A stretch of DNA of 64,000 nt from assembly GCA_002167285.1 (NCBI GenBank), contig NHDG01000117.1, forward strand, positions 2,188 through 66,187, given 5' to 3'. This DNA comes from Planctomycetia bacterium TMED53. GTDB lineage: Bacteria; Planctomycetota; UBA8108; UBA1146. The notes beneath the pieces were generated by a model that was given only the letters and a program-made list of their open reading frames with translations, ran no database searches and was not told the origin of the DNA. The first letter of the stretch is position 1, and each line of letters begins with the position of its first letter. Both the position numbers and the translations under genes were made by a program. Positions 26,901-55,342 of the stretch are shown here, piece after piece.

Positions 26901-26996
26901 ATCGTGCTTCCAGTGGTGCTTTCATTGACCCTGAAGCCCTCGCGAGAGGTCGTGGAAGTAGCTCCCCACGAGGGCGAATCATCCAGCGAAGTGTAG
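23913..26996 (+). CDS. RND efflux permease, paralog 2
   Basis: MKSFVRLCLSRPITTLTVHLL...LPLSALPNFSQNRINVTVPYP, 12-TM architecture. ATG 23913 overlaps the stop of paralog 1 (ATGA). Confidence 0.9.
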   Translation: MKSFVRLCLSRPITTLTVHLLLLLAGILSIQYLPLSALPNFSQNRINVTVPYPNASPTQVENEVVRPLEEALATLHGLEGIESESSDGRGRVTLRFGHGSDTDAIKVEVRERLARAINDLPVEDIERIRVRDGGWGPGVDTIIEARISSKGIDLSENYDLLVNRIQRPLERIDGVGQVELDGIKPLEVRIQFRKGDLERHGLTLGGIAAVINGSNIDATIGRIWKEGKTRRLRMINAIDDYDDLFDLPINDRGLRLGQVATIERIEGEMRWGRHLNHSRAISLEIAQQSGANTVNTCRRVREVVKTIQEDPQLAGITLLVWQDQGKMIENSIRQLRDAGFIGGGLALVVLLIFLRRFSATFLVGMAIPISVLSAMAALYLFEMELNTITILALMLGVGMLVDTAVVVVESIVRRATMGEAPTEAATRGTMEVATPVFAATLTTMVVFLPVMIAGDSQFSEHLGNVGLVISLTIGASLFVSLTLVPMVSARIFGSKAVKKAAWFESFKGLYLRFLGGAVRHRFLTIAIALAATLSVIIPFQNGFRLNMSDMDWKASFANIAYNPVEGLDYREMEKVVTQVELLLESRRDVIGEGDIYSWFADGTALTRIYPPQEMATEEYLADLKARISPILPKIPGFNIKTSDGWGWGGRGGGRSSAGSINVRLKGVSGSLLDELAPQVAAYLANVEGVADSEIRGRNQVDELRLEPDEDLLSRLQVSGDQVARSVSMSFAGSRLSSLRTRSSDMEISLGLLEEETDTVAELKGMRFPVTADLELPVEDLGDLVQAEAPDERKRWDRLAYANVSVEMGRGDQQQIQARIEQALESYTWPVGYTWDLGEQWSGRWRNRESFGEGMYLSVFLVYMVLACLFESLRTPLVLMVSVFLAIPGVIWTLYLQGDNLDTPAAVGTILLSGIVVNNGIVLIDQILRRMAEGQSRIDAIIDGAGDRLRPILITALTTILGLIPMAYTTQITTGPSFTTLGKTIIGGLGASTLLTLIVLPVVLSLTLKPSREVVEVAPHEGESSSEV

Positions 26997-27141
26997 TGAT
27001 TTACAACACTTGTTGCCTCACATCGGGGTGCTGCCCACCCGGTTTCCTTCTTATTCTCGGGCCTTGTTTCGTAACCTCTTTTATTGAAGGGTGTTATGAT
27101 AATTGGGCTGGGTAAAAGTTCCCTGGAGGGATACTGGAGAT

Positions 27142-27157
27142 TGGCATGAGATCTGCC
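27142..27157 (+). promoter_or_regulatory. Candidate sigma54 (-24/-12) promoter upstream of the gspK-like operon
   Basis: TGGCAT-GAGAT-CTGCC, with GG at 27143-27144 and GC at 27155-27156, i.e. the canonical spacing of TGGCAC-N5-TTGCW. It lies about 80 nt upstream of ATG 27237. Confidence 0.55.
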
Positions 27158-35859: not shown

Positions 35860-35894
35860 GTAACTGATCGGTTCCTGTCCTTACAGTGTAACAA

Positions 35895-38189: not shown

Positions 38190-38205
38190 TGCAATTGTGG
38201 TGCCA
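38190..38205 (-). promoter_or_regulatory. Sigma54 promoter (consensus match) facing the Kelch-HEAT-Kelch operon
   Basis: The minus strand reads TGGCAC-CACAA-TTGCA, an exact match to TGGCAC-N5-TTGCA. It lies downstream of the gspJ 3' hairpin and about 400 nt upstream of ATG 37787. Confidence 0.7.
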
Positions 38206-38321
38206 AATCGCAAGTGTGTGGAAAATACTCTAATTGCCGATCTAAGCACACTGGAGGTAAGTAATCAAGAAATAGGCGTGCGGAAGTGGCACATTCGTGG
38301 GCTCTCTGTCAAACGAAAACC

Positions 38322-38398: not shown

Positions 38399-39301
38399 TT
38401 AAAAGTCTCCCAACAACCCTTCTGCCAGCTCCGCTTCAGGATCGGGAAGCAGCACCTGATCCGTGACGATCAGCGGGATCACCGTCGAGAAAACTTCTAC
38501 TAACGGTTCCCCGGAAGGATCGAGGATGCGCCCACGTTCATCGCCGTAGTGCAGGTAGAGCACCACTTGGACCGCTCGGGGGATCGGGATCGGCAGCGGC
38601 TCCTCGGGAATCGGTTCACCGGTTGCGGGGTCGATGTTGTCCGCAGAAGCCGCATTGGAGGCTGCAGCTGCAGCCGCCGCGGGGTCATCGGCAGCAAGAG
38701 CGGCCTCTTCTGCTTCGAGCCGTTCCTCTTCATCAAGGAAGGGGAAGTCGCTCTCATTCACTTCAGGAAGTAGCGAGCTGGAGTCCCAATCGCCGACCCA
38801 GTTATTTTCTGCATCGAGAAAAAGGAAATCCATCGCCTTCATGCGATCGTAGATGGCGGTGCGTTCCCCTGTGTCGAGGGGGTCCAATTCCATATCCCAC
38901 GCGACCCTACGAAAGAGGATGAAATCTCCATCCTTACCGGGTCGTAGTGCGTAGCCGACGGAGCTGACTTCACCGGTCCAGCTGGAAATCGTTTCTTCCG
39001 GTTCGGGGACTGGTGAAGTAGTGAGGAAGTCGATGGTGTCTTCGGCGTTCTCTTCTTCACCACGGCTTTCACCGCGGAAGATTTCCTCACCAAAGCCACG
39101 CCAGATCGTGCCTTGGAGGTCACGGCGCATCTGATTGAGAATCGCTTCACCAACTTTGCCGGTGAGGGTTGCTTCATGAACCCGGCGATCCGCTTCGATG
39201 GTGGTTTCCAAAATTGTGTAACTCGCCAGCATGACGAGCCCGAAGATTCCGAGCACGACGACCAACTCGATGAGGGTGAATCCGTCTGATTTTTGATGCA
39301 T
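38399..39301 (-). CDS. GspJ-like minor pseudopilin
   Basis: Prepilin-type N-terminus (SDGFTLIELVVVLGIFGLVMLA), 300 aa, last gene of the pseudopilin run, with an acidic/Ala-rich C-terminal insertion. Confidence 0.55.
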   Translation of the reverse strand: MHQKSDGFTLIELVVVLGIFGLVMLASYTILETTIEADRRVHEATLTGKVGEAILNQMRRDLQGTIWRGFGEEIFRGESRGEEENAEDTIDFLTTSPVPEPEETISSWTGEVSSVGYALRPGKDGDFILFRRVAWDMELDPLDTGERTAIYDRMKAMDFLFLDAENNWVGDWDSSSLLPEVNESDFPFLDEEERLEAEEAALAADDPAAAAAAASNAASADNIDPATGEPIPEEPLPIPIPRAVQVVLYLHYGDERGRILDPSGEPLVEVFSTVIPLIVTDQVLLPDPEAELAEGLLGDF

Positions 39302-39792
39302 CAGAATTCTCCTTCACCGGTCATGTCGATCAATTGACCTGCGTAGTCGTAAAGGGCATCCCCCTCTTGTGTAAGAACACGCGTGGAGAGGGTGACCGAT
39401 TCGATTTCTTCGGTATCGCGGCCGGATCCTTGGCCGCTGTAAACGGATGGGTATTCGAGAGTCAGGGTGACCATCAGCGTCCGGGGGCCGATGTCAGTGG
39501 TTGATTCGTCGAATATTTCTACATTCCATGTCCAATCACCGACGCTGCTCTTGCCGGGGACTTCCAAATTGCCGGAGGTGTTTTCCGCAAGACCGAAGGC
39601 GACTTCATCCAATTTTTCACGGGCGAGACGATTAACGAGGCGTTGATTGTTGTAATCAAATGCATCGTCGAGGGCTTTGACCCTTAGATCGAGAATCGTC
39701 AGGAACGCACCACTGATGATGGCGACCGCCATCACCAACTCGACGAGGGTGAATCCATGATCGGAGGTGGGTGAATCTTTGAGAGTTACCAT
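39301..39792 (-). CDS. GspI-like minor pseudopilin
   Basis: Prepilin-type N-terminus (DHGFTLVELVMAVAIISGAFLTIL), 163 aa. Its stop abuts the start of the next gene. Confidence 0.55.
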   Translation of the reverse strand: MVTLKDSPTSDHGFTLVELVMAVAIISGAFLTILDLRVKALDDAFDYNNQRLVNRLAREKLDEVAFGLAENTSGNLEVPGKSSVGDWTWNVEIFDESTTDIGPRTLMVTLTLEYPSVYSGQGSGRDTEEIESVTLSTRVLTQEGDALYDYAGQLIDMTGEGEF

Positions 39793-40316
39793 TGTGGAAA
39801 CTCCGCATCATCTCCTGGAATGTAATCGGTGGTTCCCAAGATTGCTTGGAAGTAAACACCGATACTCTGTTCATCCTCGTTACTGAGGATGGCGATGTGG
39901 GATCCGGAGGAGCCATACTTGTCGAGAACGAGATCGACGGTGCCGTACTCATCTCGACTGCCATCCGGATGAATGATGCCAGTGATCTCGACACCATCTG
40001 GCAGTACCTCTGCGCCGAGGCTTTCCCTTTGGTCAAAATCGAGATCTGGGTCTTCATCCGGCTCTGGGGGGAGTAGGATTTCGACAGTGCTGTCTTCCAA
40101 TCGGTATCGCAGCACGTATTCCCTACCAACGCCTCCACCGAGGCTGCGAGCCCACGCGACCGTTTGACCAACAGTTCGAGCAGCAGAACGCAGCTTGTAA
40201 CGGGGAGAGAGATTGTCCAGATTCGGAACCACGACCGTGGCGATGATCCCCAACAGAGCGATCACGACGATCAACTCGATGATGGTGAAGCCAGAGGTGC
40301 GATTCCGGGGAGACAT
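39786..40316 (-). CDS. GspH-like minor pseudopilin
   Basis: Prepilin-type N-terminus (TSGFTIIELIVVIALLGIIATVVVP) followed by LRSAARTVGQTVAWARS, typical of GspH/FimT. Confidence 0.6.
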   Translation of the reverse strand: MSPRNRTSGFTIIELIVVIALLGIIATVVVPNLDNLSPRYKLRSAARTVGQTVAWARSLGGGVGREYVLRYRLEDSTVEILLPPEPDEDPDLDFDQRESLGAEVLPDGVEITGIIHPDGSRDEYGTVDLVLDKYGSSGSHIAILSNEDEQSIGVYFQAILGTTDYIPGDDAEFPQW

Positions 40317-40319
40317 TCT

Positions 40320-40754
40320 CTAGTATCTTCCCTGATTGTTACTGTCATCTGAGTAGAGATCCTGGGCGTAACCCTCGCCTCCTTCAGTCATGTCTTCACC
40401 AAGACTGATGAATACGGGGCGTCCATCGATGATCTCGAAGAAGTAAACCTCGTTGGTCCAGGGATCGAGAGGTTCCGTGTCGAGGTAAGTGTGAGTGAAC
40501 CCGTTGAAGTCCGCGGGGGGATTGATCAACTCATCGATAGAGTCCGGATAACGACCGTGGTCGGTGCGGAACATCTTGCACTGGGTATCGAGTGCTTTGA
40601 AATCCTGTTTGACTTTGGCAACCTTGGCCTGGTCCGTCCTGCCCATGACATTGGGTACGACGAAGGTGGCAAGGATTCCAATAATAGCGATCACCACGAT
40701 CAGTTCGATCAGGGTGAATCCGTCTTCAGGACGATTCCATTTGGAATTTTTCAT
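40320..40754 (-). CDS. gspG: Type II secretion major pseudopilin GspG
   Basis: EDGFTLIELIVVIAIIGILATFVVPNVMGRTDQAKVAKVKQDFKALDTQCKMFRTDHGRYP...DPW motif. ATG 40754 is preceded by the strong SD AGGAGG. Confidence 0.85.
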   Translation of the reverse strand: MKNSKWNRPEDGFTLIELIVVIAIIGILATFVVPNVMGRTDQAKVAKVKQDFKALDTQCKMFRTDHGRYPDSIDELINPPADFNGFTHTYLDTEPLDPWTNEVYFFEIIDGRPVFISLGEDMTEGGEGYAQDLYSDDSNNQGRY

Positions 40755-40804
40755 GATTCCTCCTGTGACTTTCCGGGCCGTTGGCCCTCTCTCTTCTCTA
40801 TGAA

Positions 40805-42019
40805 TCAAGTGTTATTGAACTGCAACAAAGGCAGCAGTACGGCCAGGATGATGAATGACACCACCACGGCGAGGAGCACGATGATGATCGGTTCGATCAT
40901 CGCCGTCAGTTTCTGAATTGAGAGTTCGATCTCTTCTTCGTAGGTTTCTGAGATTCTGTTCAATACAGATTCCAGTTCTCCGCTCTGCTCGCCGACGGCG
41001 ATCATGTATCCGACCATCGGCGGGAAGAGGGGAGATTTTTTCAAAGGTGTGGAGATATCTGCACCTTCGACGATGCGTTCAGCGATCTCGGCGATGGTTT
41101 TTGACATCACCGCGTTGTTGACGACATTGCCGACGATTCTCAGGGAATCCAAGGCTGGCAATCCGCTTCGTAAAAGTGTCGACAAGGTCACGGTGAATCG
41201 CGAAATGGCGGAGCGCTGTAACAATCCGCCCAACACCGGGATCTTGAGCAAAAGTTGATCGTAAGCGAATCGTCCTTTTTCGGTTTTCTTGAGTCCTTCG
41301 AGAAAGAGTAGGAATCCGAGGAGGGCGCCGAGCCCCAATAACCAATAGGCCTTGAAGGCATCGCTGATCATGATCAGCACTTCAGTCGCCCATGGTAGAG
41401 CATTGTCCTTTTGTACCAGCATCTCGGTGATTCTGGGAACGACGAAGGTCATCAGGAAGACGACGACCCCGAGGCCAACCACCATCATGATGGCGGGGTA
41501 GGTCAATGCTGCGGATAGCTTTCCTCTGAGGCTCGCTTGTTTCTGCAGGTACTCAGAAAGGCTGAAGAGAATTTCATCTAGGTTTCCGCTCGCCTCTCCA
41601 GCTCTCACCATATTGATGTAGAGATCGCTGAAGACAGCGGGGTGCAAGCTCATGGCATCTGCAAGGCCGGCACCGGCAACAATCCGCTCGCGAATATCGC
41701 GGAAAACCACCTCGAGGCGTTTCTCTTCGATCTGCTCGACAAGGACGTTGAGCGCTTCTGAGAGGTGCACTCCTGAACCGAGCAATGTTGAAAACTGACG
41801 GGTCAGAATTGCCAGGCTACGGATATCGACTTTCCGCTCGATGCGGTAATTGAAGATGCTCTTCGACTTTTTGTTGACCGTATTAATCCGCTCCATATCC
41901 GTGACACGGAGCTGCTGATGACGCAGCTTGTCACGGGCTTCTCGTGCCGTATCGGCATCGATATTGCCCTTCTGCTGGCGACCTCTTTGGTCGATGGCCT
42001 TGTAGGAGAAGATTGGCAT
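40805..42019 (-). CDS. gspF: Type II secretion inner-membrane platform protein GspF
   Basis: 404 aa with a duplicated T2SSF domain (two cytoplasmic helical domains, three TM segments). Its stop overlaps the longest gspG ORF. Confidence 0.9.
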   Translation of the reverse strand: MPIFSYKAIDQRGRQQKGNIDADTAREARDKLRHQQLRVTDMERINTVNKKSKSIFNYRIERKVDIRSLAILTRQFSTLLGSGVHLSEALNVLVEQIEEKRLEVVFRDIRERIVAGAGLADAMSLHPAVFSDLYINMVRAGEASGNLDEILFSLSEYLQKQASLRGKLSAALTYPAIMMVVGLGVVVFLMTFVVPRITEMLVQKDNALPWATEVLIMISDAFKAYWLLGLGALLGFLLFLEGLKKTEKGRFAYDQLLLKIPVLGGLLQRSAISRFTVTLSTLLRSGLPALDSLRIVGNVVNNAVMSKTIAEIAERIVEGADISTPLKKSPLFPPMVGYMIAVGEQSGELESVLNRISETYEEEIELSIQKLTAMIEPIIIVLLAVVVSFIILAVLLPLLQFNNT

Positions 42020-42038
42020 CTGAAGTCCTTATTATTCC

Positions 42039-43742
42039 TTAGAAGACGTCCATCTGGGTGACTCGTAAAACTTCTTCGACGGTGGTGACTCCCTGAGCCA
42101 CTTTACGTGAACCGTCCATACGGAGAGTGCGTAAGTGTCCACTTTCAACCGCAGTCTGCTTGATCACGGAAGCACTCGTTCGTGAGATGATTTGGTCACG
42201 GATGGTCTCATTCATCGTCAAAATTTCGTAAATAGCTGTTCGGTCGTAGTAACCCCTGCCAAGACAGGAATCACAGCCACGACCGTGGTAGAGCTTACCT
42301 TCCAACAGCTGATCCTTTTCAAGGCCGATGCTTTTCAGCTGGCTAGGCTCTGGTTCGAAGGACTCTTTGCAGCGGGGGCAGATCACTCTGACCAGGCGTT
42401 GGGCGACGACGCCGATCAACGATGAGGAAACCAGGTACGGTTCGACACCGAGGTCGATCATTCGTGTCACCGCACCGGCTGAATCGTTGGTGTGAAGGGT
42501 GGAGAACACCAAGTGTCCGGTGTTCGAAGCCTGCACAGCGATGCCTGCGGTTTCCATGTCGCGGATCTCACCGACCATCATGACATCCGGATCCTGACGC
42601 ATCAGGGTTCGAAGTCCGGAAGCAAAGGTCAGGCCTTTTTTGTTGGAGACCTGAATCTGACTGATGGAATCGATGTTGTATTCGATGGGGTCTTCGATGG
42701 TGATGATGTTCAGTTCTTGGGAGTCCATCTCTGCAAGAGCTGCGTAGAGTGTCGTGGATTTTCCGGAACCGGTAGGTCCCGTCACCAACAGCACTCCGTG
42801 GGAAGAGTTGACCAAACCATCGAGAAGCTCATAGTTGCGGTTATCGAGGCCGATCTCTTCCAAGCGATAGAGGCGCGCGCTTTTATCGAGGAGTCGGAAG
42901 ACGATCCTCTCCCCGTAACTGGTTGGGATCGAGGAGATCCTCAAGTCCAACTCACTATCGCCAATTTTGACAGAGGTTCGTCCGTCTTGGGGAAGTCGTC
43001 TTTCGGCGATATCCATCTTGCCGATCACCTTCACCCTGGAGACGAGTGCTTCCTGGATCTTCTTTGGAATCACCTTGGTGTCGTAAAGGATGCCGTCGAT
43101 GCGGTATCGAACTTGCAGTCGATCCGCAAAGGGTTGCAGGTGAATATCTGAAGCACGATTTTTTTGTGCCTCAAACAGGATGGTGTTCATCAGTTTGATG
43201 ATCGGCGCCTTGTTGGCGATATCGAGAACGTCTTCGGTTTCGTCGATTTCAGCTGCGATACCAATCAGGTCGTCATCTTCGATACCCTCCAGCAGTTCAT
43301 CCACATCTGCGCTCGACTTTTGGTAAGCGCGATTGATGAGCGCGGTGATTTGGGCCCGAGTCGATACCACCGGTTCGATGACCAGGCCGACTTTTGCCGA
43401 GAGGTCGTCCATCGGCTGAACATCGAGGGGGTCACACGTTGCTACGATGAGAGTTCCTGGCTCTTCACCGACGGCGATCAAGTTGTAGGTCCTCGCAAAT
43501 TGAGCGGGAACACTATTGACGAACATGTCTGGGGTACTGAAATCCTCCAGATCTTCAATGTAATTGAGATGAAGTTGTGCGGAGAGGGCTTTCAGGAAGT
43601 CCTCTTCCGAGACGTATCCCTTTTCCCGCAAGACCTTGTCGATGGGCTTGCCGGTGGTGCGTTCCTCTTCCTGGCACTCATGTAGTTGATCTTGGTTCAG
43701 GAGTCCGTCTTCGATCAGTCCGTTGAAGATCGAATGAATCAT
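42039..43742 (-). CDS. gspE: Type II secretion ATPase GspE
   Basis: Walker A GPTGSGKST, Asp box/Walker B (MMVGEIRD), His box (LVFSTLHTND), a tetracysteine motif (CPRC...CDSC) and an N-terminal T2SSE_N domain. Confidence 0.95.
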   Translation of the reverse strand: MIHSIFNGLIEDGLLNQDQLHECQEEERTTGKPIDKVLREKGYVSEEDFLKALSAQLHLNYIEDLEDFSTPDMFVNSVPAQFARTYNLIAVGEEPGTLIVATCDPLDVQPMDDLSAKVGLVIEPVVSTRAQITALINRAYQKSSADVDELLEGIEDDDLIGIAAEIDETEDVLDIANKAPIIKLMNTILFEAQKNRASDIHLQPFADRLQVRYRIDGILYDTKVIPKKIQEALVSRVKVIGKMDIAERRLPQDGRTSVKIGDSELDLRISSIPTSYGERIVFRLLDKSARLYRLEEIGLDNRNYELLDGLVNSSHGVLLVTGPTGSGKSTTLYAALAEMDSQELNIITIEDPIEYNIDSISQIQVSNKKGLTFASGLRTLMRQDPDVMMVGEIRDMETAGIAVQASNTGHLVFSTLHTNDSAGAVTRMIDLGVEPYLVSSSLIGVVAQRLVRVICPRCKESFEPEPSQLKSIGLEKDQLLEGKLYHGRGCDSCLGRGYYDRTAIYEILTMNETIRDQIISRTSASVIKQTAVESGHLRTLRMDGSRKVAQGVTTVEEVLRVTQMDVF

Positions 43743-46069
43743 GGCTGCATCTCTTCCTTGGTGGCATCCTCGACGGAGATCTCGTCTTTCTGTGCTGCAT
43801 CGCGCGGATTATTGGGATCAGTGAATTGTTGCAGACGAATATCGTCGTCGAATGAACGGACTCCCTTGATGGCGTCCTTGGTGAAGTTGCCAAGGCCGTT
43901 GTAGTTGGAGTCATCCATGATGTGTGCACTAAGGAAGACGTATAGATTGTCGCGGGCGGTGCTGGAGGCCTTCGACTGGAACAATGGGCCGAGGAAAGGT
44001 AGATCTCCGAGGAAGGGGACCTTGCTTGCGACCTCGGCTTGCGCCATCTGTGCCAACCCACCGATGATGAACATGCCGCCGTCGGGGATCGTCACTTTAC
44101 TACTGACCACGTTGGTGGAACGATCGGGAAGTGCTCCGGAGTCGTTAGCGGCAACCGCAAAGGATGACACTTCCAACTGAAGTTCAAGGAGTACGACTTC
44201 GCTAGAGATCGTTGGCACCAGATTGAGAGTGATTCCCGCAGACTCTGATTGCTGACTTGTCGTCACGTTGATGTTTGAGGTACTCGACGTGGTATAGAAG
44301 ATCTCGTTGGTCACCGAGATGGAGTTCTCCTGGTTGTCGTCTGCGAGGATGAATGGGGTGGCCAGAATGTTACTGTCGTTATCCTCTTTCAAAGCTCTGA
44401 TGATTAATGGGAATTGCCCGTCCTGTTGGATGATCCCACCGAGTCCATTGGAGACACCTGGAGTTCTCGAAAGTCCGGTGATGACTCCATTCGGATCGAG
44501 GGCGGGGGTCACCGTACTCGCTCCGAATGAGCTGAGCAGGATTCCTGCAAGGTTTTGATCGTCGAGATTTCCGGCGAGGAACTCGAGAGTGTAATTCAGG
44601 CTCGAAGAATCTTTAACCTGAACGAGGGCGACTTCGAGGAACACCTGGCGACGACGTTGGTCGATCTGCTTGAGGATGTTCTCGATTTCTTCGTACTCCT
44701 CCGGTTCCGCCTGGATGATCAGTGAGTTGGTTTGCTCGTGGGGGACGATCCTGGTCGGAGTGAACTGTTGCTGAGTCTGAACTCCACCGGTGTTTCCTGC
44801 TCCGGTTCTGTTTCTGGTGTTCGTTCTAGAGGTGTTTGTCCGACGAAGAGAACCTTCAGATCCTTCCACCAACTGGCGGATGTTGTCGGCGAGTTCTTCA
44901 GCTTTCAGGTAATTGACTTTGTAGATCCAAGTCGTGTTTCTGACGTTACGAACCTTGGTATCGAGCTCATCGATGAGCTGGTGTACCAGATCCAATTCGT
45001 CGGGGTCAGTGGACTGAATGATGATTTTTTGTGTGCGGTCATCAGGGATGAGACGGGTCGATTCACCCGCGAGGGTTCCAGAGGAGAAGCTCCTGTTGGT
45101 TTGTCCCCGGGCTCCTCCCTGGGCGGGGGTCGGTGTCGTTCGTCTTCCGGTCGAGCCGGTGGGACTGAATTCACTGAGCGCCTCTGTGACGATTTGCACG
45201 ATACTTTGGGCGTCGGCGTAGAAGAGTTCGCGAATCGTTAGCGATTGCTCAGGTCCGGTGACTTCGACGTCGATGTACTTCACGATTCGTTGGATGTGTT
45301 CCAGGACTCGCATCTTGGCACGGATCAACATCGTCTCGTTCTCCGGAACGGTGACGATCTTGACGCTGCCTGAAGCATTTCCTGCTCCTGCGATGCCGAG
45401 AAGTTCCTGCAAGGCGGTACGAACTACCTGAGCAGTGGTGAAATCCAACTGTAAAACGAGGGTCGCCAATTCTTCTCCGGGTGCGGTGATCGCTTCTTCA
45501 TCGTCGGCAACGTAGATGGGGCTAACCGGATCGACGGGGGCGGATTGTCCTCCCCTGGGAGAAGCTGAGCGAACATTGACCGCTATCGTTCCATCTTCCA
45601 GTTCACTTTCCCACAACTCGTAACCATTGGTTTCCAAGATCGCCTTGATGACCGGATAGGTCAGTGGGTCCACATCGCCGATCACATCGACGGTGGTGTC
45701 TTCGGCGAAGGCGACGTCATTCGCCGCCGAAGGGTAGTTGACGAACTTACCGGTGGTTCGCTGGATGAAACGCAGCAGACTAAGCACGGGGAAGGAACCT
45801 TCCTCCATGCGATAGACCTCCGCATTATCCACCTCTTCGATTGCGCCGGCGGCTTCCTCTTCGACGGGAGCCGCGTCATCTCCATCTTGGGCACTTGCGA
45901 CGGAACCGAGTCCCGGTGTCAGTACCAAGAGAAGCAGGCTCAGTAGCAGCAGACCAGCTGGTCTGAACTCTCCAAGCCTCTCCGGCATGGGGGTATGGTC
46001 GGTCTCATCGAAGGAGACCGGGCGATTCATCTGAGGCATTGCTGTGTACCCTCTCAACTTGGGGTTCAT
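43739..46069 (-). CDS. gspD: Type II secretion secretin GspD
   Basis: Repeated Secretin_N modules (..TNSLIIQAEPEEYEEIENILKQIDQRR) and a C-terminal secretin core (VTIPDGGMFIIGGL..KVPFLGDLPFLGPLFQSK). Start uncertain: ATG 46069 has SD GAGAGG, and TTG 46192 and ATG 45988 are alternatives. Confidence 0.85.
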   Translation of the reverse strand: MNPKLRGYTAMPQMNRPVSFDETDHTPMPERLGEFRPAGLLLLSLLLLVLTPGLGSVASAQDGDDAAPVEEEAAGAIEEVDNAEVYRMEEGSFPVLSLLRFIQRTTGKFVNYPSAANDVAFAEDTTVDVIGDVDPLTYPVIKAILETNGYELWESELEDGTIAVNVRSASPRGGQSAPVDPVSPIYVADDEEAITAPGEELATLVLQLDFTTAQVVRTALQELLGIAGAGNASGSVKIVTVPENETMLIRAKMRVLEHIQRIVKYIDVEVTGPEQSLTIRELFYADAQSIVQIVTEALSEFSPTGSTGRRTTPTPAQGGARGQTNRSFSSGTLAGESTRLIPDDRTQKIIIQSTDPDELDLVHQLIDELDTKVRNVRNTTWIYKVNYLKAEELADNIRQLVEGSEGSLRRTNTSRTNTRNRTGAGNTGGVQTQQQFTPTRIVPHEQTNSLIIQAEPEEYEEIENILKQIDQRRRQVFLEVALVQVKDSSSLNYTLEFLAGNLDDQNLAGILLSSFGASTVTPALDPNGVITGLSRTPGVSNGLGGIIQQDGQFPLIIRALKEDNDSNILATPFILADDNQENSISVTNEIFYTTSSTSNINVTTSQQSESAGITLNLVPTISSEVVLLELQLEVSSFAVAANDSGALPDRSTNVVSSKVTIPDGGMFIIGGLAQMAQAEVASKVPFLGDLPFLGPLFQSKASSTARDNLYVFLSAHIMDDSNYNGLGNFTKDAIKGVRSFDDDIRLQQFTDPNNPRDAAQKDEISVEDATKEEMQP

Positions 46070-46243
46070 GGCATTTCCTCTCTCTTCATCGGCCGGTAGG
46101 CGATCGGCCTTGGGACTTTTCGGGACATTTTTCCTGATCTTGTGTTCGGCGATCCGACGACAGGGTCGAGACTTGCTCTCTCCTGCCGCCAAATGCAGCG
46201 AAACTCGCTGCAGGGATGGAATCCGCCGTTCCCCTTCATTTTA

Positions 46244-46259
46244 AGCAAATCAAATGCCC
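46244..46259 (-). promoter_or_regulatory. Candidate sigma54 (-24/-12) promoter upstream of gspD
   Basis: The minus strand reads GGGCAT-TTGAT-TTGCT, with GG at 46258/46257 and GC at 46246/46245, i.e. canonical spacing. Only the first T of the consensus differs. Confidence 0.55.
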
Positions 46260-46426
46260 GTCCATGGCAACTGGGCAAGTTATCCAACTTTATTTAAATA
46301 AAGGGGTTACGTGATTCCGGTAACCTATTCCTGGTGGCCAATTATCTGATCTGGGGTGTGAAGTGTTGTGAAATCGAACATCTTTGCCAGGAGGGGTTTT
46401 CGTGACGATGCTGGATTATCGGAGGT

Positions 46427-47200
46427 TCAGGGGCGAGATCGATCCAGATCTTGAAGCATCTTTTGAGCTTCTTTCCAAAGGTGTTCGGGGATCCTGATCA
46501 GCAAAGAGTTGGTGGGCTCGTTGACGACGACGTGAATTCCCTGGCCCCCTCGATCCTCCCAGCGCTGCTCCAGCAGTTCAGCCAGCAATGGGGCTCTCAT
46601 AAATTGGGCCTTCCAAATCTTCAGTGCGGGTCGATCTTGGTTCGGTGGGGGGCGTTGGTCTTTTTCGCGAATCAGTCGGAGATAGTGATTCAAGCGCGCG
46701 TTGGAAGCGCAGTTTAGAACGATGCTATTTGTCCGAGGTGAAGGGACGAAGTTGCTGTAACGGTCGAGTGGATCGAGGTTTTTTTCCTTGGAGCGAGCTT
46801 CTGAGCGCAACAGGTCAACCGCTTCTTCCGGATCGAGATGTTCGAGTTGAATCACTTCGATGATGGGCTTTGGACGTGGTGGATCAGCCAGAGGATTGTA
46901 CGTGATCCAGTAAGCTCTTGGTTGATCAGCGGAGCCAACGGGTTTGAGGAAAAGACCAGAGTTGTTGAGAAGTGCTTCCAAGAGCTGAAAATTCTGGTGA
47001 TTCAATGTGAATGGTTTGAGTAAGTTCACAGGTGTGTTGCCCATTTTATCTTCAGCGTAGACGAGCGGGGCATCTGAAAGTAATGCCCAGCCTCTCAGCA
47101 GAGAGGCCGCGGGAAGATAACCCTTGGGCAGAACATCACCGGGTTCGGTAGGTAGCGGCAGCAGCAGAAATGCAGAGAGGCAAATTCCCAAGGTATTCAC
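46427..47200 (-). CDS. Secreted protein with Secretin_N-like repeats (free-standing secretin N-domain protein)
   Basis: Signal peptide MNTLGICLSAFLLLPLP. There are two segments shaped like secretin N-domains (IEVIQLEHLDPEEAVDLLR...RTNSIVLNCASNARLNHYLRLIREKD; LKIWKAQFMRAPLLAELLE...PTNSLLIRIPEHLWKEAQKMLQDLD). GTG start. Confidence 0.45.
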   Translation of the reverse strand: MNTLGICLSAFLLLPLPTEPGDVLPKGYLPAASLLRGWALLSDAPLVYAEDKMGNTPVNLLKPFTLNHQNFQLLEALLNNSGLFLKPVGSADQPRAYWITYNPLADPPRPKPIIEVIQLEHLDPEEAVDLLRSEARSKEKNLDPLDRYSNFVPSPRTNSIVLNCASNARLNHYLRLIREKDQRPPPNQDRPALKIWKAQFMRAPLLAELLEQRWEDRGGQGIHVVVNEPTNSLLIRIPEHLWKEAQKMLQDLDRSRP

Positions 47201-47342: not shown

Positions 47343-49181
47343 TCATTCGACCATGTTCTTCAATCTCGAGTAGAGGGTCGATCTTTCGATTCCAAGGATT
47401 TCAGCAGCCTTCTTTTTGTTTCCACCAGCGTGCTCCAAAACCTTTAAAATATGCTCCTCTTCAAGGACTTTGAGGGAAACAGGTTTCCACTCTCCCTCCG
47501 ACTGAATTGCGGGGTCTTGAGGTAGCAATCGCAAATCGTTGCCTTCAATCAGACCGCCCTCAGAGAAGATCACGGCACTCTCAAGAAGGTTGCGGAGTTC
47601 GCGAACATTTCCGGGGAAAGGGTGTGAATCCAGCAACTCGATCGCTTCGGGGGTGAGTTGTTTTCTCGGTCTGTTCTTGTCGGAAAATTGATCGAGGAAG
47701 TGCTCCGCAAGAAGTGCAATATCTCCACTTCGATCTCTCAACGGCGGAGCCTGAATCTCGAGAACGGCGAGACGGAAGTAGAGATCCTCACGGAATCGAC
47801 CCGCTTCAACTTCTTTTTTGAGGTCGCGATTGGTTGCGGCAATTAATCGAACGTCAACTTCAATGGAGGTGTTACTGCCAACCATTTCGAGGCAACGGGT
47901 TTCCAGTAATCGCAGCATTTTTGATTGGGCTGGCTCGGGAAGTTCGCCAATTTCATCAAGAAACACGGTGCCGCCATCTGCCGCTTCAAACTTACCGATT
48001 TTTTTGCGGTCCGCTCCTGTGAACGCTCCCTTTTCGTGGCCGAAGAGTTCGCTTTCGACAAGATGGGGAGGAATCGCGGCGCAATTGATGGTGACAAATG
48101 GGGCGGCAGATCGAGATCCATGAAAGTGAATCCCCCGCGCGACGAGTTCTTTGCCGGTGCCGGTTTCTCCCATCACCAGGACGGTCCCTTGTGTTGGAGC
48201 TACTTTTTTGATGAATGTGCGGACTTCTTCGATGGCTTGGGAAGAACCGATGATGGGGTGGGTGTTCAGAACTGATTTCACCAGTTCTTCCTTCTCATGA
48301 TGGAGCTCGTCGAGCTCGGCATTGAGAGAGAGCCCTGCACCCATCGTTGCGGCAGCAATGCCACCAGCCCACATCTCCGCTTCACCCAAGGGGCGAGAGT
48401 CTCCATCAATTCGATCGAGGTAGAGAATGCCACTGAGGGATCCCTCGATGAAAATTGGTGCGGCGATCACGCTACGAATTTCATCACCTGTCACACTGCG
48501 GCGGTCTTCAAAACGAGGATCTAAGGAGGTGTCACGAGAAAGAACTGTGCGTCTATTGCGCAACAGTTCCGCAAGGATGGTTTGGCTTAACACGAATCCT
48601 TGCAGTGGCACTCCAATCCGCGACCAAGCAGTTCGGCATAGCCAATGGTCACCTTCTTGGATCAAGATGGCTCCACGATCAGCTTCCACTCCTTCGACTA
48701 ATTTTTGTAATCCTCGATCGAGGCTTTCTGAGTCGGAGAACCCTTCACCAAGAAGGGGGGCGGCTTGATCCAGGGTTTTGAGGATTTGACGAACTTGTTG
48801 ATCCGAGAAGCTACCGGGATCTTCAGTTTTTGAATCCAGGATTTGGGTACGCTCAGGATGATCGGAAAATGTTTCAATCCGTGTTTCGACGATGAGCTCC
48901 GTATCTCCAATACGAATATGCTGACCTGGGAACAACAATTGTTCTTTGATGGGGTCGCCAGAGACAAACGTGCCATTAGAAGAATCGAGATCGGTAACTT
49001 TCCAGCCGGATGAAGTCAAATTGAGAAGAGCGTGAAAGCGGCTGGCTGCGGGGTCACGTAAGCAGATTTCGGCCGATTCATCACGGCCGATGCGAATTCC
49101 GTCTCGACGTGCCAACTCATCACTGATGTCGTATTTTTTTGCGGATTCACCTGGGGAAACGACGTGGACACGAGTCTTCAT
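47343..49181 (-). CDS. Sigma54-dependent transcriptional activator with N-terminal FHA and GAF domains
   Basis: FHA domain (IRIGRDESAEICLRDPAASRFHALL...DLDSSNGTFV), a central GAF-like region, AAA+ domain (GETGTGKE, ESELFGHEKGAFTGA) and a Fis-type HTH (AAEILGIERSTLYSRLK). ATG 49181 overlaps the kinase stop (ATGA). Confidence 0.85.
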   Translation of the reverse strand: MKTRVHVVSPGESAKKYDISDELARRDGIRIGRDESAEICLRDPAASRFHALLNLTSSGWKVTDLDSSNGTFVSGDPIKEQLLFPGQHIRIGDTELIVETRIETFSDHPERTQILDSKTEDPGSFSDQQVRQILKTLDQAAPLLGEGFSDSESLDRGLQKLVEGVEADRGAILIQEGDHWLCRTAWSRIGVPLQGFVLSQTILAELLRNRRTVLSRDTSLDPRFEDRRSVTGDEIRSVIAAPIFIEGSLSGILYLDRIDGDSRPLGEAEMWAGGIAAATMGAGLSLNAELDELHHEKEELVKSVLNTHPIIGSSQAIEEVRTFIKKVAPTQGTVLVMGETGTGKELVARGIHFHGSRSAAPFVTINCAAIPPHLVESELFGHEKGAFTGADRKKIGKFEAADGGTVFLDEIGELPEPAQSKMLRLLETRCLEMVGSNTSIEVDVRLIAATNRDLKKEVEAGRFREDLYFRLAVLEIQAPPLRDRSGDIALLAEHFLDQFSDKNRPRKQLTPEAIELLDSHPFPGNVRELRNLLESAVIFSEGGLIEGNDLRLLPQDPAIQSEGEWKPVSLKVLEEEHILKVLEHAGGNKKKAAEILGIERSTLYSRLKNMVE

Positions 49182-50914
49182 GAGACATCTGCCATGCGCA
49201 ATGCGCGTAATACTCTCTCTCGATCGAGAGCTCCTTGGAGAAGGACCCGATCCACTTTGCTGTTCCAACCGGAGATGTCTCCTTCGAATCTCAAGCCCGG
49301 TGCACCGGAAGGGATCGCATCGACAGGGATACTGAAAACGATCGTCAGGATGTCTGAAGTTTGCTTTTCACCAGCGGTGGAAATCGAAAATTGATATCGT
49401 TGCCGATCTGGGTTTTGCCGATCCAATTTTTCCAACTTCAAATGGTGGTTCACTCCCTCACGGACAACCCCAGTCCGTTGTAAATCTTCGATTTCAACCG
49501 CTACAGGAGATCCTTGTTGCAATACTTCAATTCGTGGAGGTGCCGATCTCCCTACCGGAAGGCTGATGCGCCAACGATTTCCAGGTTGATCGGGGTCACC
49601 GGCGACTTGCAGTTCCAGATCGGGATTACCAAGACAGCGTAAGCCATGGATCTCCCAGCTATCGATCTCCGACATAAATGGAAATGAGACGGTTCTGGAA
49701 TCATTGGCCCAACGCAGTTGACCATCCCTGATCGATAGGGATATGCGCTTTCGCGTAGCCCTCTGGTCTTCGAGAGGGTCCATACGGAAGAACCTCTCGA
49801 GTTCACCATTCTTGAAATCGAAATCGAGAAGATCTTTTGCTCCCTGATGGGCCAATAGGTCGCCGTAATATTCGCTGACCCGTTTGTTGGCTGAGGGGAA
49901 TCCCAACCAGTCTCCTATGCCACCGTTGATCGAGGCGGCCCAGCCGACCACTGTAATCAAGAGGGCAACAGTCGTCGCCGCGATCAGAGAACTACGTGCA
50001 GACTGCTTTTTGCTGGGATCGAGGCGGCTCTCTATCCCTCGCAGGCATTGCAGTACTTCCCGGTAGTTTTGTGGGCGCTGTTTTGGATCCTTCGCCATCA
50101 TGCGGTGGAGGAGGTCATCCAGTTCTGGATCGAGACCTGGTTTCACTTCAGTGACACGTGGAACCGGCGCATTGACATGAGCAATTAGGAGATCCATGCG
50201 CGAGTCTCTGCGGTATGGCGGAGACCCGGTCAGTAGATGGAACAGCGTTGCACCCAGACTGTAAATGTCAGATCTTTCATCGGTCACTGATCCTTGAACC
50301 TGTTCTGGGGAGCAGTATTGCGGAGTTCCTACGACTTCTGTTTCGTCATCCGTGAGTTCTCCAACAGGTCCAGCGAGACCAAAGTCGACCAACTTAATAC
50401 TGTCCCGGGAATCGATGATCAGGTTTGAAGGTTTGATATCACGGTGAATGATTCCTTGATTGCGCGCTTCCTCTAATGCTCGAGAAGCGGCGAGTGCGAC
50501 GCGCAAGACTTCCAGAGTTTCGAGGCATTTTTGTTTTTGTAGTAGTTCCTCAAAACTGGGGCCAGGAAGAAACTCCATCACTAAATAGGGAAGTTCACCG
50601 TCGTCGTGAATTGCGTGAATCTGGCCGATGTTGGGATGGTTGACTGCAGCGATGGCGCGAGCTTCGGCCAAGAATTTTTCACGGATATCGTCATGATCCT
50701 TGAGTCGTGGGTGAACACGTTTGATGGCGACGGTTCTTTGTAGCGATGGATCGTGGGCGCGGTAAACGATTCCCATGCCACCTTCGCCCATCTTCTCTTC
50801 GATGACGAAGTGGCCAATTTTGTCGAAGCTGGGGGTTTGCATCGGTTGGGTGTCACCCGCTGAAAGGCTATCCGAGTCCGGTGTGGCGGGGCTGAGGAGA
50901 ATGTCAGATTTCAT
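49178..50914 (-). CDS. Hanks-type Ser/Thr protein kinase with a TM segment and an extracytoplasmic C-terminal domain
   Basis: Gly loop GEGGMGIVYRA, VAIK Lys, catalytic loop HRDIKPSNL, DFG and GTPQYCSPE motifs. TM segment LIAATTVALLITVVGWA is followed by a domain of about 250 aa of unknown fold. Confidence 0.9.
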   Translation of the reverse strand: MKSDILLSPATPDSDSLSAGDTQPMQTPSFDKIGHFVIEEKMGEGGMGIVYRAHDPSLQRTVAIKRVHPRLKDHDDIREKFLAEARAIAAVNHPNIGQIHAIHDDGELPYLVMEFLPGPSFEELLQKQKCLETLEVLRVALAASRALEEARNQGIIHRDIKPSNLIIDSRDSIKLVDFGLAGPVGELTDDETEVVGTPQYCSPEQVQGSVTDERSDIYSLGATLFHLLTGSPPYRRDSRMDLLIAHVNAPVPRVTEVKPGLDPELDDLLHRMMAKDPKQRPQNYREVLQCLRGIESRLDPSKKQSARSSLIAATTVALLITVVGWAASINGGIGDWLGFPSANKRVSEYYGDLLAHQGAKDLLDFDFKNGELERFFRMDPLEDQRATRKRISLSIRDGQLRWANDSRTVSFPFMSEIDSWEIHGLRCLGNPDLELQVAGDPDQPGNRWRISLPVGRSAPPRIEVLQQGSPVAVEIEDLQRTGVVREGVNHHLKLEKLDRQNPDRQRYQFSISTAGEKQTSDILTIVFSIPVDAIPSGAPGLRFEGDISGWNSKVDRVLLQGALDRERVLRALRMADVS

Positions 50915-51072
50915 CGATTCGCCTCCAATCTCGGTGCCTAAGGAGTTGCTTCAATTTCACGACCGGTCGATCCACCCCGGCCCACGTCATGCTATCCTAA
51001 CCGACAGGGAAGGCAGGATTTCAGCGCCTGCCCAGTTCATGGGGAGATCAGACTCGCAAGGATAGTCTCACG

Positions 51073-55005: not shown

Positions 55006-55342
55006 CGGTAACGACTCCGTTGCAGCTTTTTAGGATTCTCTTTTGAAGCTGCATGCTGCCACGAATTGGGGAAGGACTGCAGCACAATTCAGCAGAGTGG
55101 GAGTGAGTTAAATTACTACAAAAATACCCCATATGAGGCCCTATATCGGGTAAAGTGGCCGATAGGTTCGTGATCCTCGCCGATGTGTGTCTTCGTAAGT
55201 TTTTTATTTTCAAGGGTTTATGAATTCAGTGGTCAATTCGAGCTGAAGCCGGTGGGGTTCAGACAGCGGGTACACCATTTGCTATCTATATCCACAGCTG
55301 ACCCGCTGAATCGCCGCACGGTTGCGGTGCCTTGAGAGAGGA

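Follow-up and report, generated by a model that had tools for sequence, protein, structure and literature searches.

A Hanks kinase gene and an FHA-domain sigma54 activator gene linked to type II secretion genes in marine Planctomycetota

Architecture of the locus

The window, by which we mean the whole 64,000-nucleotide stretch of Planctomycetia bacterium TMED53 DNA analysed here, carries on its minus strand the genes for a Hanks-type Ser/Thr kinase, an FHA- and GAF-containing sigma54 enhancer-binding protein (EBP) and a free-standing Secretin_N protein (SecN), followed by type II secretion system (T2SS) genes (Table 1). The kinase is laid out as an N-terminal tail, a kinase domain, one transmembrane segment and a periplasmic ConA-like domain. 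Among 14 aligned homologues the VAIK lysine K65 is nearly invariant, and H157-R158-D159, the catalytic-loop N164, D177-F178-G179 and the APE-like S202-P203-E204 are invariant; the catalytic motifs are intact and phosphotransfer activity is predicted. Ahead of this domain, T22 of the tail is invariant and the residue at +3 is always M, L or F, even in relatives whose ectodomains share 23-27% identity. Basic residues (KK..R) on the N-terminal side of the transmembrane segment point, by the positive-inside rule, to an N-in, C-out topology. A PASTA kinase (PknB/Stk1 equivalog NF033483) was rejected, with a score of 277.7 bits that falls short of the 450 cut-off, an alignment confined to the kinase domain, and a predicted ConA-like sandwich where PASTA repeats would be.

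Table 1. Positions of the genes, domains and regulatory elements in the window.
Feature	Positions	Strand	Basis
Hanks-type Ser/Thr kinase gene, 578 aa	49178..50914	-	ORF and translation; Pkinase 172 bits (Pfam gathering score 31.7)
Kinase tail motif D-T22-Q-P-M, candidate autophosphorylated pThr docking site for FHA	50840..50854	-	conservation; function inferred
Kinase catalytic domain, residues 37-286	50057..50806	-	Pfam PF00069, E 2e-50
Single transmembrane segment, about residues 308-330	49925..49993	-	sequence and alignment
Putative periplasmic sensor domain, residues 331-578, ConA-like lectin/glucanase beta-sandwich	49181..49924	-	AlphaFold2 and Foldseek
ATGA stop/start overlap, kinase-activator	49178..49181	-	ORFs
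FHA-GAF-AAA+(sigma54)-HTH_8 EBP, 612 aa	47343..49181	-	Pfam
FHA domain, residues 1-100	48882..49181	-	Pfam PF00498, 56.4 bits (cut-off 20.7); residue conservation; AlphaFold2 pLDDT 83-92
Linker motif T112-Q113-I-L between FHA and GAF, candidate phospho-acceptor and FHA ligand	48837..48848	-	conservation
GAF domain, NifA-like	48339..48725	-	PF01590, 38 bits
Sigma54-interaction AAA+ domain	47751..48254	-	PF00158, 234 bits
Fis-type HTH_8 DNA-binding domain, residues 570-608	47358..47474	-	PF02954, 51.6 bits
SecN, third constant member of the cassette	46427..47200	-	PF03958
19-bp enhancer-like dyad TGT-N11-ACA upstream of gspD, GTGTTGTGAAATCGAACAT on the + strand	46363..46381	.	phylogenetic footprint
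Sigma54-type promoter of gspD-E-F-G-pseudopilin operon, GGGCAT-N5-TTGC	46245..46259	-	conserved -24/-12
T2SS operon: gspD, gspE, gspF, gspG and three pseudopilin-like genes	38399..46192	-	Pfam Secretin, T2SSE, T2SSF, T2SSG, N_methyl
Consensus sigma54 promoter before Kelch-HEAT-Kelch genes	38190..38205	-	perfect match
Second dyad copy, GTGTAGTGATTTACAACAC, upstream of gspK-like operon	26991..27009	.	PWM
Sigma54-type promoter of gspK-like/PilM-like operon (27168-32380), TGGCAT-N5-CTGC	27142..27156	+	conservation

The C-terminal region of the kinase had been described, from the letters of the sequence, as an extracytoplasmic domain of about 250 residues with an unrecognised fold. The size holds, as does the lack of any sequence match in Pfam, NCBIfam or the PDB, but a fold class can now be predicted: AlphaFold2 gives a confident ConA-like jelly roll of the lectin/GH16 type (pLDDT 88.3, pTM 0.87). 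Foldseek pairs the model with PDB structures of GH16 glucanases and of legume lectins at a probability of 1.0 and an E-value of 3e-5, and all 41 chains at probability 1.0 (E 3e-5 to 1e-3) are lectins or GH16/GH43-associated sandwiches, with TM-scores of just 0.3-0.46, so that the match assigns a fold class and not a family. Only 19 representatives occur among 1.84 billion proteins; the nine kinase-length or truncated ones that were scanned are all kinases, and one 303-residue fragment gave no domain match. Judged by sequence, the ectodomain is a family of its own, confined to these kinases. The GH16 catalytic motif E-x-D-x-(x)-E is not kept (EIDSWE here; QLDRWE, ELREWK and EFDRLR in relatives), and the invariant acidic pair is instead the D-x-E within PDLEL. 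A GH16 glucanase was rejected because of this loss, which makes a binding domain more likely than an enzyme.

The kinase and activator genes meet, as the sequence-only reading had stated, in an overlap of stop and start codons: the kinase frame, read from 50914 down, ends GAT GTC TCA TGA, and the activator opens ATG AAG ACT, with the TGA at 49178-49180 and the ATG at 49179-49181. Overlaps of 4 nt are more common in operons than any other, and one such is unremarkable by itself. The ATGA form is retained in the closer relatives (loci L001-L012), and in distant ones the junction takes the form of TTGA, GTGA or CTGA, a 1-nt overlap, or a gap of 2-262 nt. SecN comes after the activator in every examined locus whose sequence reaches that far; its start overlaps the activator stop in the five relatives checked (L005, L022, L028-L030), and the minus strand between the two genes has no terminator-like site. 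The cassette encodes no phosphatase, a PP2C_2 search of the genome found no match, and the sole SpoIIE-type PP2C of the genome is located elsewhere.

That the activator carries an FHA domain in place of a receiver, together with a GAF domain, is borne out by Pfam, which places FHA at residues 29-92, GAF at 153-267, Sigma54_activat at 310-477, then AAA_lid_14, and HTH_8 at 570-608, and detects no receiver domain. Across 29 orthologues the pThr-binding residues S47, R48, H50, S67, S68 and N69 are invariant and G32 and R33 nearly so; the phosphothreonine-binding site is thus intact and predicted to bind pThr peptides. Equally invariant in these orthologues are Walker A (GETGTGKE, 338-345), GAFTGA (385-390) and D409-E410. 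The best NCBIfam match is NifA, and the protein scores under every equivalog cut-off; NifA itself (TIGR01817) was rejected at 367 bits against 528.85 and with no nif genes nearby.

Linkage to the secretion genes and their promoters

The kinase, the activator and the T2SS are strictly linked across one order of marine Planctomycetota. In every relative examined the kinase-activator-SecN trio adjoins the same T2SS cluster, and all 16 GTDB species with the ectodomain have a divergent argZ, then kinase, EBP and SecN, then T2SS genes as far as the contig reaches. The same neighbourhood surrounds five distant homologues (23-27% ectodomain identity) despite differing flanks or an insert between SecN and gspD, and the FHA-GAF activator is directly visible in four of the five; the contig of the fifth (L026) ends inside the downstream gene. 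Approached from the activator side, the kinase lies directly upstream in three of three orthologues looked up. Of 21 relatives, 18 have the ectodomain, each as a single copy, and the same 18 genomes give a strong gspK-like match; the three without such a match lack the ectodomain.

Part of this linkage reflects shared ancestry rather than independent retention, because a wider gene order of about 25 kb is common to the relatives. That the adjacency is nothing but inherited order within this single order of Planctomycetota, with no functional coupling, is very improbable nonetheless, given that the pair is never split in any examined locus although ectodomain identity falls to 23-27% and flanks, spacers and insertions vary, that stop/start overlaps are frequent, and that a kinase and a pThr reader have complementary domain logic.

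Two operons of secretion genes are preceded by sigma54-type promoters. At gspD, in every one of loci L001-L021 that includes this spacer, neither the -24 nor the -12 element varies while the spacer does, and family f2 loci also have such promoters. The gspK-like/PilM-like operon, assigned by T2SSK and PilM_2 matches, retains TGGCA[CT]-N5-CTGC in five of six sampled genera of the family. At both gspD and gspK a conserved dyad lies 120-150 bp upstream of the conserved GG-N10-GC promoter, and these two dyads are the two best PWM matches over the 2.98-Mb genome, scoring 25.0 (gspD) and 22.4 (gspK). The f2 loci carry a related palindrome, for example TGTAGCG-GAT-CGCTACA. With an AAA+ domain bearing Walker A/B and GAFTGA, an HTH, sigma54 in the genome (two rpoN genes), and these promoters and dyads, the activator is by its sequence features a bacterial enhancer-binding protein.

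A model for signalling and its alternatives

We suggest that the three genes, the last of them for a SecN protein taken to be periplasmic, probably form a regulatory cassette dedicated to the adjacent T2SS and working through pThr/FHA signalling, and that the pair most likely switches the T2SS genes on through the shared enhancer. The periplasmic ConA-like domain would respond to a signal in the envelope, for which a glycan or the state of the secretion machine is the most plausible candidate, and the kinase would autophosphorylate, with T22 as the candidate site. The FHA domain of the activator could then dock on this pThr and the kinase phosphorylate the activator, perhaps at T112 in the FHA-GAF linker, whereupon pThr/FHA contacts would lift the repression that the N-terminal region exerts, or would bring the hexamer together. 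With its HTH on the 19-bp TGT-N11-ACA dyad some 120-150 bp upstream, the activator would remodel sigma54-RNA polymerase at the promoters of gspD and gspK, thereby switching on the T2SS structural operons. The sequence-only reading had drawn this wiring in outline and had included the Kelch genes. The linkage, the intact motifs, the invariant threonines, the two rpoN genes and the promoters with a common dyad all speak for the outline, but not for the Kelch genes, whose promoter is not conserved beyond the genus, has another kind of element upstream and lacks the TGT-N11-ACA dyad in the PWM search.

Both partners offer an invariant Thr in a pT-x-x-hydrophobic context as a candidate FHA ligand, T22 (DTQPM) in the kinase and T112 (RTQIL) in the activator. 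T112-Q113 is invariant in 29 orthologues, with I, V or L at +3, inside an otherwise variable linker. Paralogous FHA-GAF sensor proteins have [ST]-x-[IV]-[IVL] at the matching position, the aligned residue is Ser instead of Thr in paralogous FHA-GAF histidine kinases, and AlphaFold2 places a short strand here (pLDDT about 63). FHA domains bind pSer poorly. Because of the Ser in paralogues and the predicted strand, the T112 motif may have a structural role, or may be phosphorylated without serving as an FHA ligand.

We considered how the same components might act with the opposite sign. In such an arrangement the phosphorylated kinase tail would hold on to the FHA domain and so keep the activator at the membrane and off the DNA, a signal or dephosphorylation would free it, and phosphorylation would be the off-switch. 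The conserved docking-type motif around T22 would serve this arrangement, the activation loop, which is acidic, has no conserved Thr in many relatives and is compatible with a constitutively active kinase, and the N-terminal regulatory domains of GAF-type activators, as in EBPs of the NorR/NifA type, commonly act negatively. The invariant T112-Q, however, speaks for an activator that is itself a substrate rather than just a tethered partner, and we regard this inverted arrangement as unlikely.

Somewhat less likely again is that a small molecule bound by the GAF domain is the main control on the activator, with the kinase merely co-expressed and acting on other targets, such as T2SS components post-translationally, as PpkA does for the T6SS. 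The GAF domain is NifA-like, its conservation is very strong (more than 20 of its positions are invariant among the orthologues), and the genome holds further kinases and FHA proteins; its 12 Hanks kinases, 9 FHA domains and 12 sigma54 activators make cross-talk possible. Against control chiefly through the GAF domain stand the strict conservation of the phosphate-binding residues of the FHA domain, the lack of any other FHA gene in either the cassette or the T2SS cluster, and the constant pairing of kinase and activator in all examined loci, even where the flanks change.

A second activator, of the NtrC type (57121-58548), is likewise syntenic and could be the dyad binder. Together with its HAMP histidine kinase (the pair spans 55322-58548) it might serve the dyads and T2SS promoters, leaving the FHA-GAF activator to control, for example, SecN or the Kelch genes. 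This pair is syntenic with the locus in most relatives, and the HTH_8 domains are too alike for specificity to be assigned from them. In L025 and L028, however, the pair is not adjacent, yet kinase, activator and SecN (with the T2SS) stay together; the pair lies head-to-tail with downstream genes of its own (a giant CarboxypepD_reg protein and a PDZ protein). The FHA-GAF activator is encoded directly upstream of gspD on the same strand, and its core is NifA-like, the NifA enhancer TGT-N10-ACA being similar to the dyad. We therefore consider control of the T2SS by the two-component pair improbable and infer that the FHA-GAF activator binds the dyads.

Relation to known systems

In the H1-T6SS of Pseudomonas aeruginosa the PpkA/PppA-Fha1 threonine phosphorylation pathway, which is listed in PMC6213207, shares the logic by which a kinase with a periplasmic sensor domain gates a secretion machine through pThr and FHA. 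The earlier analogy to it survives as logic and no further. PpkA-Fha1 control is post-translational, uses a scaffold FHA protein to act on assembly and is paired with a PP2C, whereas here the FHA reader is the transcription activator itself, the machine is a T2SS and the locus has no phosphatase. Assignment of the T6SS pathway to this locus was rejected, there being no T6SS genes and no phosphatase in it and the FHA domain lying within a transcription factor.

In Mycobacterium tuberculosis, phosphorylation of EmbR by PknH is reported to depend on the EmbR FHA domain (Molle et al. 2003, Biochemistry 42:15300, cited in PMC6213207; PMC8636726). There too a Hanks kinase that spans the membrane and has an extracytoplasmic sensor domain is encoded beside an FHA transcription factor. 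EmbR differs from the activator here in being a sigma70 activator of the SARP/OmpR type whose FHA domain is C-terminal, and in having no AAA+/sigma54 mechanism and no GAF, and the systems differ in sensor fold and regulon (arabinan synthesis for PknH-EmbR).

The GAF-AAA+-HTH core is that of NifA, NorR and FhlA, and the TGT-N11-ACA dyad resembles the NifA upstream activating sequence (UAS), TGT-N10-ACA. In contrast to these proteins, the activator bears an additional FHA domain at its N-terminus, has no nif, nor or hyc genes around it, and scores below every equivalog cut-off. The eukaryotic checkpoint kinases Chk2/Rad53 are activated by oligomerisation mediated by pThr-Gln and FHA, and for AAA+ activators assembly is the activating step. 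By analogy, given the invariant T-Q in the linker beside the FHA domain, the FHA of one subunit could bind the pThr of its neighbour and promote assembly. The analogy is mechanistic only, the proteins being unrelated and the aligned site being Ser in paralogous bacterial FHA-GAF proteins.

There is a close likeness in protein architecture to FHA-domain sigma54 EBPs reported from Myxococcus xanthus, where Ser/Thr kinases rather than histidine kinases are said to have been proposed to feed sigma54 transcription. In both cases the FHA domain replaces the N-terminal receiver of the EBP. In Myxococcus the step from kinase through FHA to EBP is not known to have been demonstrated by biochemistry. 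The present locus differs in having the partner kinase in the same operon, an extra GAF domain, a T2SS rather than developmental genes as its output, and its place in the Planctomycetota. The proposed switch from kinase through FHA to sigma54 is a known idea, and the setting, a T2SS in Planctomycetota, is new.

The kinase-activator pair and its predicted sensor domain

The kinase and activator genes share the nucleotides ATGA at 49178-49181, where the stop codon of the kinase overlaps the start codon of the activator. This overlap, which the sequence-only reading had pointed out, is evident when both reading frames are read; ATGA is the commonest operon junction and alone is not remarkable. 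Pfam places a Pkinase domain at residues 37-286 of the kinase and FHA (29-92), GAF (153-267), Sigma54_activat (310-477), AAA_lid_14 and HTH_8 (570-608) domains in the activator, with no receiver domain, in agreement with the earlier view that an FHA domain takes the place of a receiver and is accompanied by a GAF domain. The sequence features by which Hanks kinases, FHA domains and bacterial enhancer-binding proteins (EBPs) are recognised are present. In the kinase, K65, HRD, N164, DFG and SPE show little or no variation, and 29 activator orthologues conserve the FHA phosphate-binding residues (G32, R33, S47, R48, H50, S67, S68 and N69) together with Walker A, GAFTGA, Walker B and the HTH. NCBIfam matches were all sub-threshold, to PknB-type kinases for the kinase domain and to NifA and other EBPs for the activator; the equivalog thresholds missed were those of PknB-PASTA and NifA, respectively. 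The full-length AlphaFold2 (AF2) model of the activator is confident for the FHA and GAF domains only, with a poor AAA+ part (pLDDT 27-50), and we therefore draw no reading of interdomain packing from it.

The kinase has a single hydrophobic segment (residues about 308-330) with basic residues before it, followed by about 250 residues for which Pfam, NCBIfam and PDB sequence profile searches gave nothing. At the sequence level, the domain is thus as unrecognised as had been described. A word-indexed search of 5.8 billion proteins returned 18 relatives of this ectodomain (residues 331-578), and HMMER, run exhaustively over 1.84 billion cluster representatives, returned 19. Ten matches were scanned with Pfam; nine are kinases, including seven of full length (565-647 aa) and one truncated, and the tenth is a 303-aa fragment with no Pfam domain. 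The genome that contains the window encodes one copy.

Only structure prediction, which had been proposed for this domain, gave a fold, and the predicted fold is concanavalin-A (ConA)-like. The AF2 model, built from 18 sequences (mean pLDDT 88.3, pTM 0.87), consists of two helices flanking an all-beta sandwich, and its top Foldseek matches in the PDB are GH16 beta-glucanases and legume lectins, at probability 1.0 and E-values as low as 3e-5, whereas the TM-scores stay low at 0.3-0.46. Because the matches are strong in probability and E-value and low in TM-score, we assign the modeled domain to the concanavalin-A-like lectin/glucanase class as a family of its own. A GH16-like enzyme was rejected, since the catalytic E-x-D-x-x-E is not conserved among the relatives; the family-invariant acidic pair is a D-x-E within "PDLEL". 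A binding role, as a sensor, is more likely than catalysis, and it is solely the predicted fold class that suggests a carbohydrate ligand.

Two Thr motifs lie in otherwise variable, and probably flexible, segments of the two proteins. The N-terminal tail of the kinase carries [DE]-T22-[QR]-P-[ML], 14 residues ahead of the catalytic domain, where T22 is invariant and only M, L or F stands at +3, the remotest relatives included. The linker between the FHA and GAF domains of the activator carries T112-Q113-[IV]-[LIV], with invariant T and Q, at which AF2 places a short strand with only moderate confidence. Many FHA domains are known to prefer pT-x-x-hydrophobic, and both motifs fit this preference as candidate sites. 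Three points call for caution on these candidates: the AF2 strand at the linker motif, the Ser that paralogues mostly have at the place of T112 (below), and the activation loop of the kinase, which is acidic and whose Thr residues are not conserved.

The FHA-linker-GAF cassette likewise forms the N terminus of histidine kinases, of adenylate/guanylate cyclases and of one SpoIIE-type phosphatase in Pirellulales and other Planctomycetota (our proteins P0069-P0143), in which a linker motif [ST]-x-[IV]-[IVL] is conserved. The position aligned to T112 is mostly Ser ([GS]-S-[RQ]-I-[VI]) in the paralogous Pirellulales FHA-GAF histidine kinases, cyclases and PP2C proteins. The cassette looks like a reusable pThr-related input module.

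Conserved linkage to type II secretion genes

Downstream of the activator lie the gene for SecN, a free-standing Secretin_N protein, and those of a type II secretion system (T2SS). Upstream of the kinase, and divergent from it, are an ArgZ-like gene, an FAD oxidase gene and the genes of a HAMP histidine kinase/NtrC-type regulator pair, with the gene for a giant CarboxypepD_reg repeat protein after them.

Genes and regulatory elements of the kinase-activator-T2SS locus (window positions)
Feature	Position	Strand	Remarks
Kinase ORF	50914->49178	minus	578 aa; terminal codons GTC TCA TGA
Activator ORF, start ATG	49181-49179	minus
SecN	46427-47200	minus	downstream of activator
gspD, gspE, gspF, gspG, pseudopilin genes	down to 38399	minus	downstream of SecN
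Kelch-HEAT-Kelch module	32463-37787	minus
GspK-like + PilM-like operon	27168-32380	plus	convergent
gspD dyad, 19 bp	46381-46363		phylogenetic footprinting; about 120 bp before -24
gspD sigma54-type promoter, GGGCAT-N5-TTGC	46259-46245	minus	in SecN-gspD spacer
Second dyad copy	26991-27009		opposite orientation; upstream of gspK-like operon
gspK-like operon sigma54-type promoter, TGGCA[CT]-N5-CTGC	27142-27156	plus	about 150 bp downstream of dyad
Kelch sigma54 promoter, TGGCAC-N5-TTGCA	38205-38190	minus	perfect consensus; conserved within genus only

The arrangement ArgZ<- ->kinase-activator-SecN is common to all 16 GTDB species with the ectodomain, and gspD, E, F and G come after SecN for as much as each contig covers. 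These species are Planctomycetota MAGs, except that three records bear no title beyond "bacterium" and one carries the label Bacillota. The neighbourhood persists, despite altered upstream genes in some loci, around five far kinases whose ectodomains are 23-27% identical; the FHA-GAF activator is directly visible in four of these loci, and the contig of the fifth (L026) ends inside the downstream gene. In one locus (L024), SecN and gspD are separated by a gene for a PAS sensor kinase-receiver, which leaves the kinase-activator-SecN trio intact. Orthologues of the activator form about 30 clusters, from Planctomycetota MAGs wherever named, and in each of the three whose loci were inspected the kinase gene lies immediately upstream, with SecN and the T2SS downstream. 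Of 21 related genomes, 18 have a single copy of the ectodomain; these are the ones with a strong GspK-like match, and they belong to two families of the order. The other three have neither the ectodomain nor such a match.

The kinase/activator junction is ATGA in the closer relatives (L001-L012) and TTGA, GTGA or CTGA in remoter family members; with CTGA, the activator would start further upstream and the overlap would be longer. At still greater distance it becomes a 1-nt overlap or a gap of 2 to 262 nt. In the five loci checked (L005, L022, L028, L029 and L030), the activator stop overlaps the SecN start by 4 nt, so that the three genes form one translationally linked unit there. Given these overlaps, and with no terminator-like site on the minus strand of the activator-SecN interval of the window, kinase, activator and SecN look like one operon. 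Some of this conservation comes from the common ancestry of a syntenic block of ~25 kb; even so, the kinase-activator pair is never split in the loci examined, while flanks, spacers and sequence drift. Mere inherited synteny is a rival reading that we think very improbable.

Sigma54 promoters and a dyad common to the T2SS operons

Both T2SS operons are preceded by a sigma54-type promoter. At gspD, the -24/-12 elements are invariant in all L001-L021 loci that include the SecN-gspD spacer, with variation in the 5-nt spacer, and remoter loci keep a promoter of this type (TGGCGT/TGGCGG/GGGCAT-N5-TTGC). The 19-bp dyad is the most distal among further conserved upstream blocks and has the form GTGTTC-N7-GAACAC in relatives; at the gspK-like operon, dyad and promoter are conserved in five of six sampled genera of the family. 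With a weight matrix of 19 sites, two of them the window sites themselves, the window dyads rank first and second genome-wide (25.0 and 22.4; next 19.2), and neither of the next-best sites (C18:7790 and C22:68571) lies in a convincing promoter or gene setting. The sister family (f2) has related palindromes, e.g. TGTAGCG-GAT-CGCTACA, and the general form is therefore TGT-N11-ACA. Since the same dyad precedes the gspD and gspK promoters, we consider it a locus-specific enhancer common to the two T2SS operons. The gspK promoter region (26991-27156) is laid out like that of gspD, down to the A/T-rich block, TAACC.CTTTTATT, that separates dyad from promoter and could be an IHF-type bending site.

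The NifA enhancer is TGT-N10-ACA, which the window element recalls, and the core of the activator is NifA-like; this likeness is consistent with the activator as the dyad-binding protein. The NtrC-type regulator encoded in the same neighbourhood is a less probable rival candidate for that role.

The sequence-only reading had the activator drive an adjacent secretion/Kelch regulon through sigma54. Its secretion part gains the two promoters with their common dyad; its Kelch part gains no support, as the Kelch promoter lacks the dyad and is kept only within the genus, and control by the same activator is not supported. Some 75 bp ahead of the Kelch promoter stands a conserved element, TGTGYCA-N4-CGCACG (38277-38293, minus strand), with no second copy in the window; it differs from the T2SS dyad, which suggests another activator.

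A candidate sigma54 promoter ahead of the kinase (AGGCAC-N5-TTGGA, 50924-50939) was rejected: it lies right against the start codon, its GC element is missing, and relatives have no counterpart. Lack of such a promoter would fit steady, sigma54-independent expression of the sensor pair. Between activator and SecN, a scan of L001-L022 found no sigma54 promoter in L001-L021, nor is there one in the window's genome; only two distant loci (L023 and L025) have one. On the plus strand, GGGTAC-N5-TTTGC (55268-55282) has GG/GC at sigma54 spacing about 40 nt before the HAMP/NtrC operon and may be its autoregulated promoter. After gspJ, an extended hairpin of ~66 nt with a U-run (38316-38387, minus strand; -44 kcal/mol, z = -4.4) matches nothing in Rfam. 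It is almost invariant across genera, far above the flanking DNA and beyond the need of a plain terminator, and may therefore be a structured RNA or a protein-binding element.

A model for kinase input to sigma54 transcription

What we observe are the architecture, the conservation, the promoters and the enhancer; the most likely course of events, given below, is inferred for every biochemical step, for the direction of control, for the ligand and for which protein binds the dyad. The ConA-like domain would read a periplasmic cue and so activate the kinase, pT22 in the kinase tail would recruit the FHA domain of the activator, and the activator would be phosphorylated, with T112 as the candidate site. 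Contacts between pThr and FHA, within or between subunits, would relieve N-terminal repression or promote hexamer assembly, and the enhancer-bound activator would open sigma54 promoters at both the gspD and the gspK operon. The first interpretation of the pair is thus largely right apart from Kelch, and the finding beneath it is real and well conserved. New here are the lectin-like sensor family, the T2SS output, the common TGT-N11-ACA enhancer and the two invariant Thr motifs, through which the pathway is open to direct testing in vitro.

Less probably, the conserved T22 might serve an off-switch, in which the activator is tethered at the membrane; the invariant linker T112 suggests, on the other hand, that the activator is itself a substrate. 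It is also less probable that a GAF ligand dominates and the kinase acts elsewhere, a reading for which the strongly conserved GAF domain speaks and against which the unbroken pairing of the two genes does. A bolder form of the activating model, which we think improbable, makes the cassette a feedback loop that senses substrate or machine: the ConA-like ectodomain, perhaps with SecN, would read glycan or secretin state, and Chk2-like pThr-Gln/FHA contacts would drive assembly of the AAA+ activator.

Sigma54 activators are textbook two-component outputs. FHA-domain EBPs are reportedly found in Myxococcus xanthus, and eukaryote-like kinase input to sigma54 activators via FHA domains was proposed for Myxococcus twenty years ago; to our knowledge, it has never been dissected. 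Along with GAF-type EBPs, these are among the closest described systems to the cassette. So is PknH-EmbR of M. tuberculosis, in which a membrane Hanks kinase adjoins an FHA transcription factor that is phosphorylated in an FHA-dependent manner (PMC8636726, PMC6213207), and PpkA/PppA-Fha1 of the T6SS, but the action of the latter is post-translational (PMC6213207). If the bolder form of the model is correct, sigma54 transcription would for the first time be traced in full back to a Hanks kinase and a T2SS for the first time be placed under such control, and FHA-linker-GAF would be a general pThr-gated input, also bolted onto histidine kinases, cyclases and PP2C phosphatases in Planctomycetota. 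The organisms are uncultured and the general principle is already known. The cassette is compact, with one kinase, one activator, two candidate phospho-sites, a 19-bp enhancer at exactly two promoters and a T2SS output; with every element defined, each step can be tested using purified parts. The model suggests that abundant marine Planctomycetota induce their T2SS on a periplasmic, probably glycan, cue, which bears on how these polysaccharide degraders deploy secreted and surface proteins.

The assembly, an 83%-complete Planctomycetota MAG of 2.98 Mb, encodes two rpoN, 12 sigma54-type AAA+ domains, 12 Hanks kinase domains and 9 FHA domains. A second FHA-(GAF-like)-sigma54 activator of 689 aa (C75:27607-31814) has no kinase nearby; its stop codon overlaps the start codon of the gene for a 713-aa membrane protein with an FHA domain. 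An FHA-kinase fusion is encoded on C91 at about 51.5-52.6 kb. With these pThr readers in one genome, they may engage in cross-talk. A search of the genome for PP2C_2-type phosphatases gave nothing, and the only SpoIIE-type PP2C phosphatase detected (C96:121364-124493) lies about 2 kb from one rpoN.
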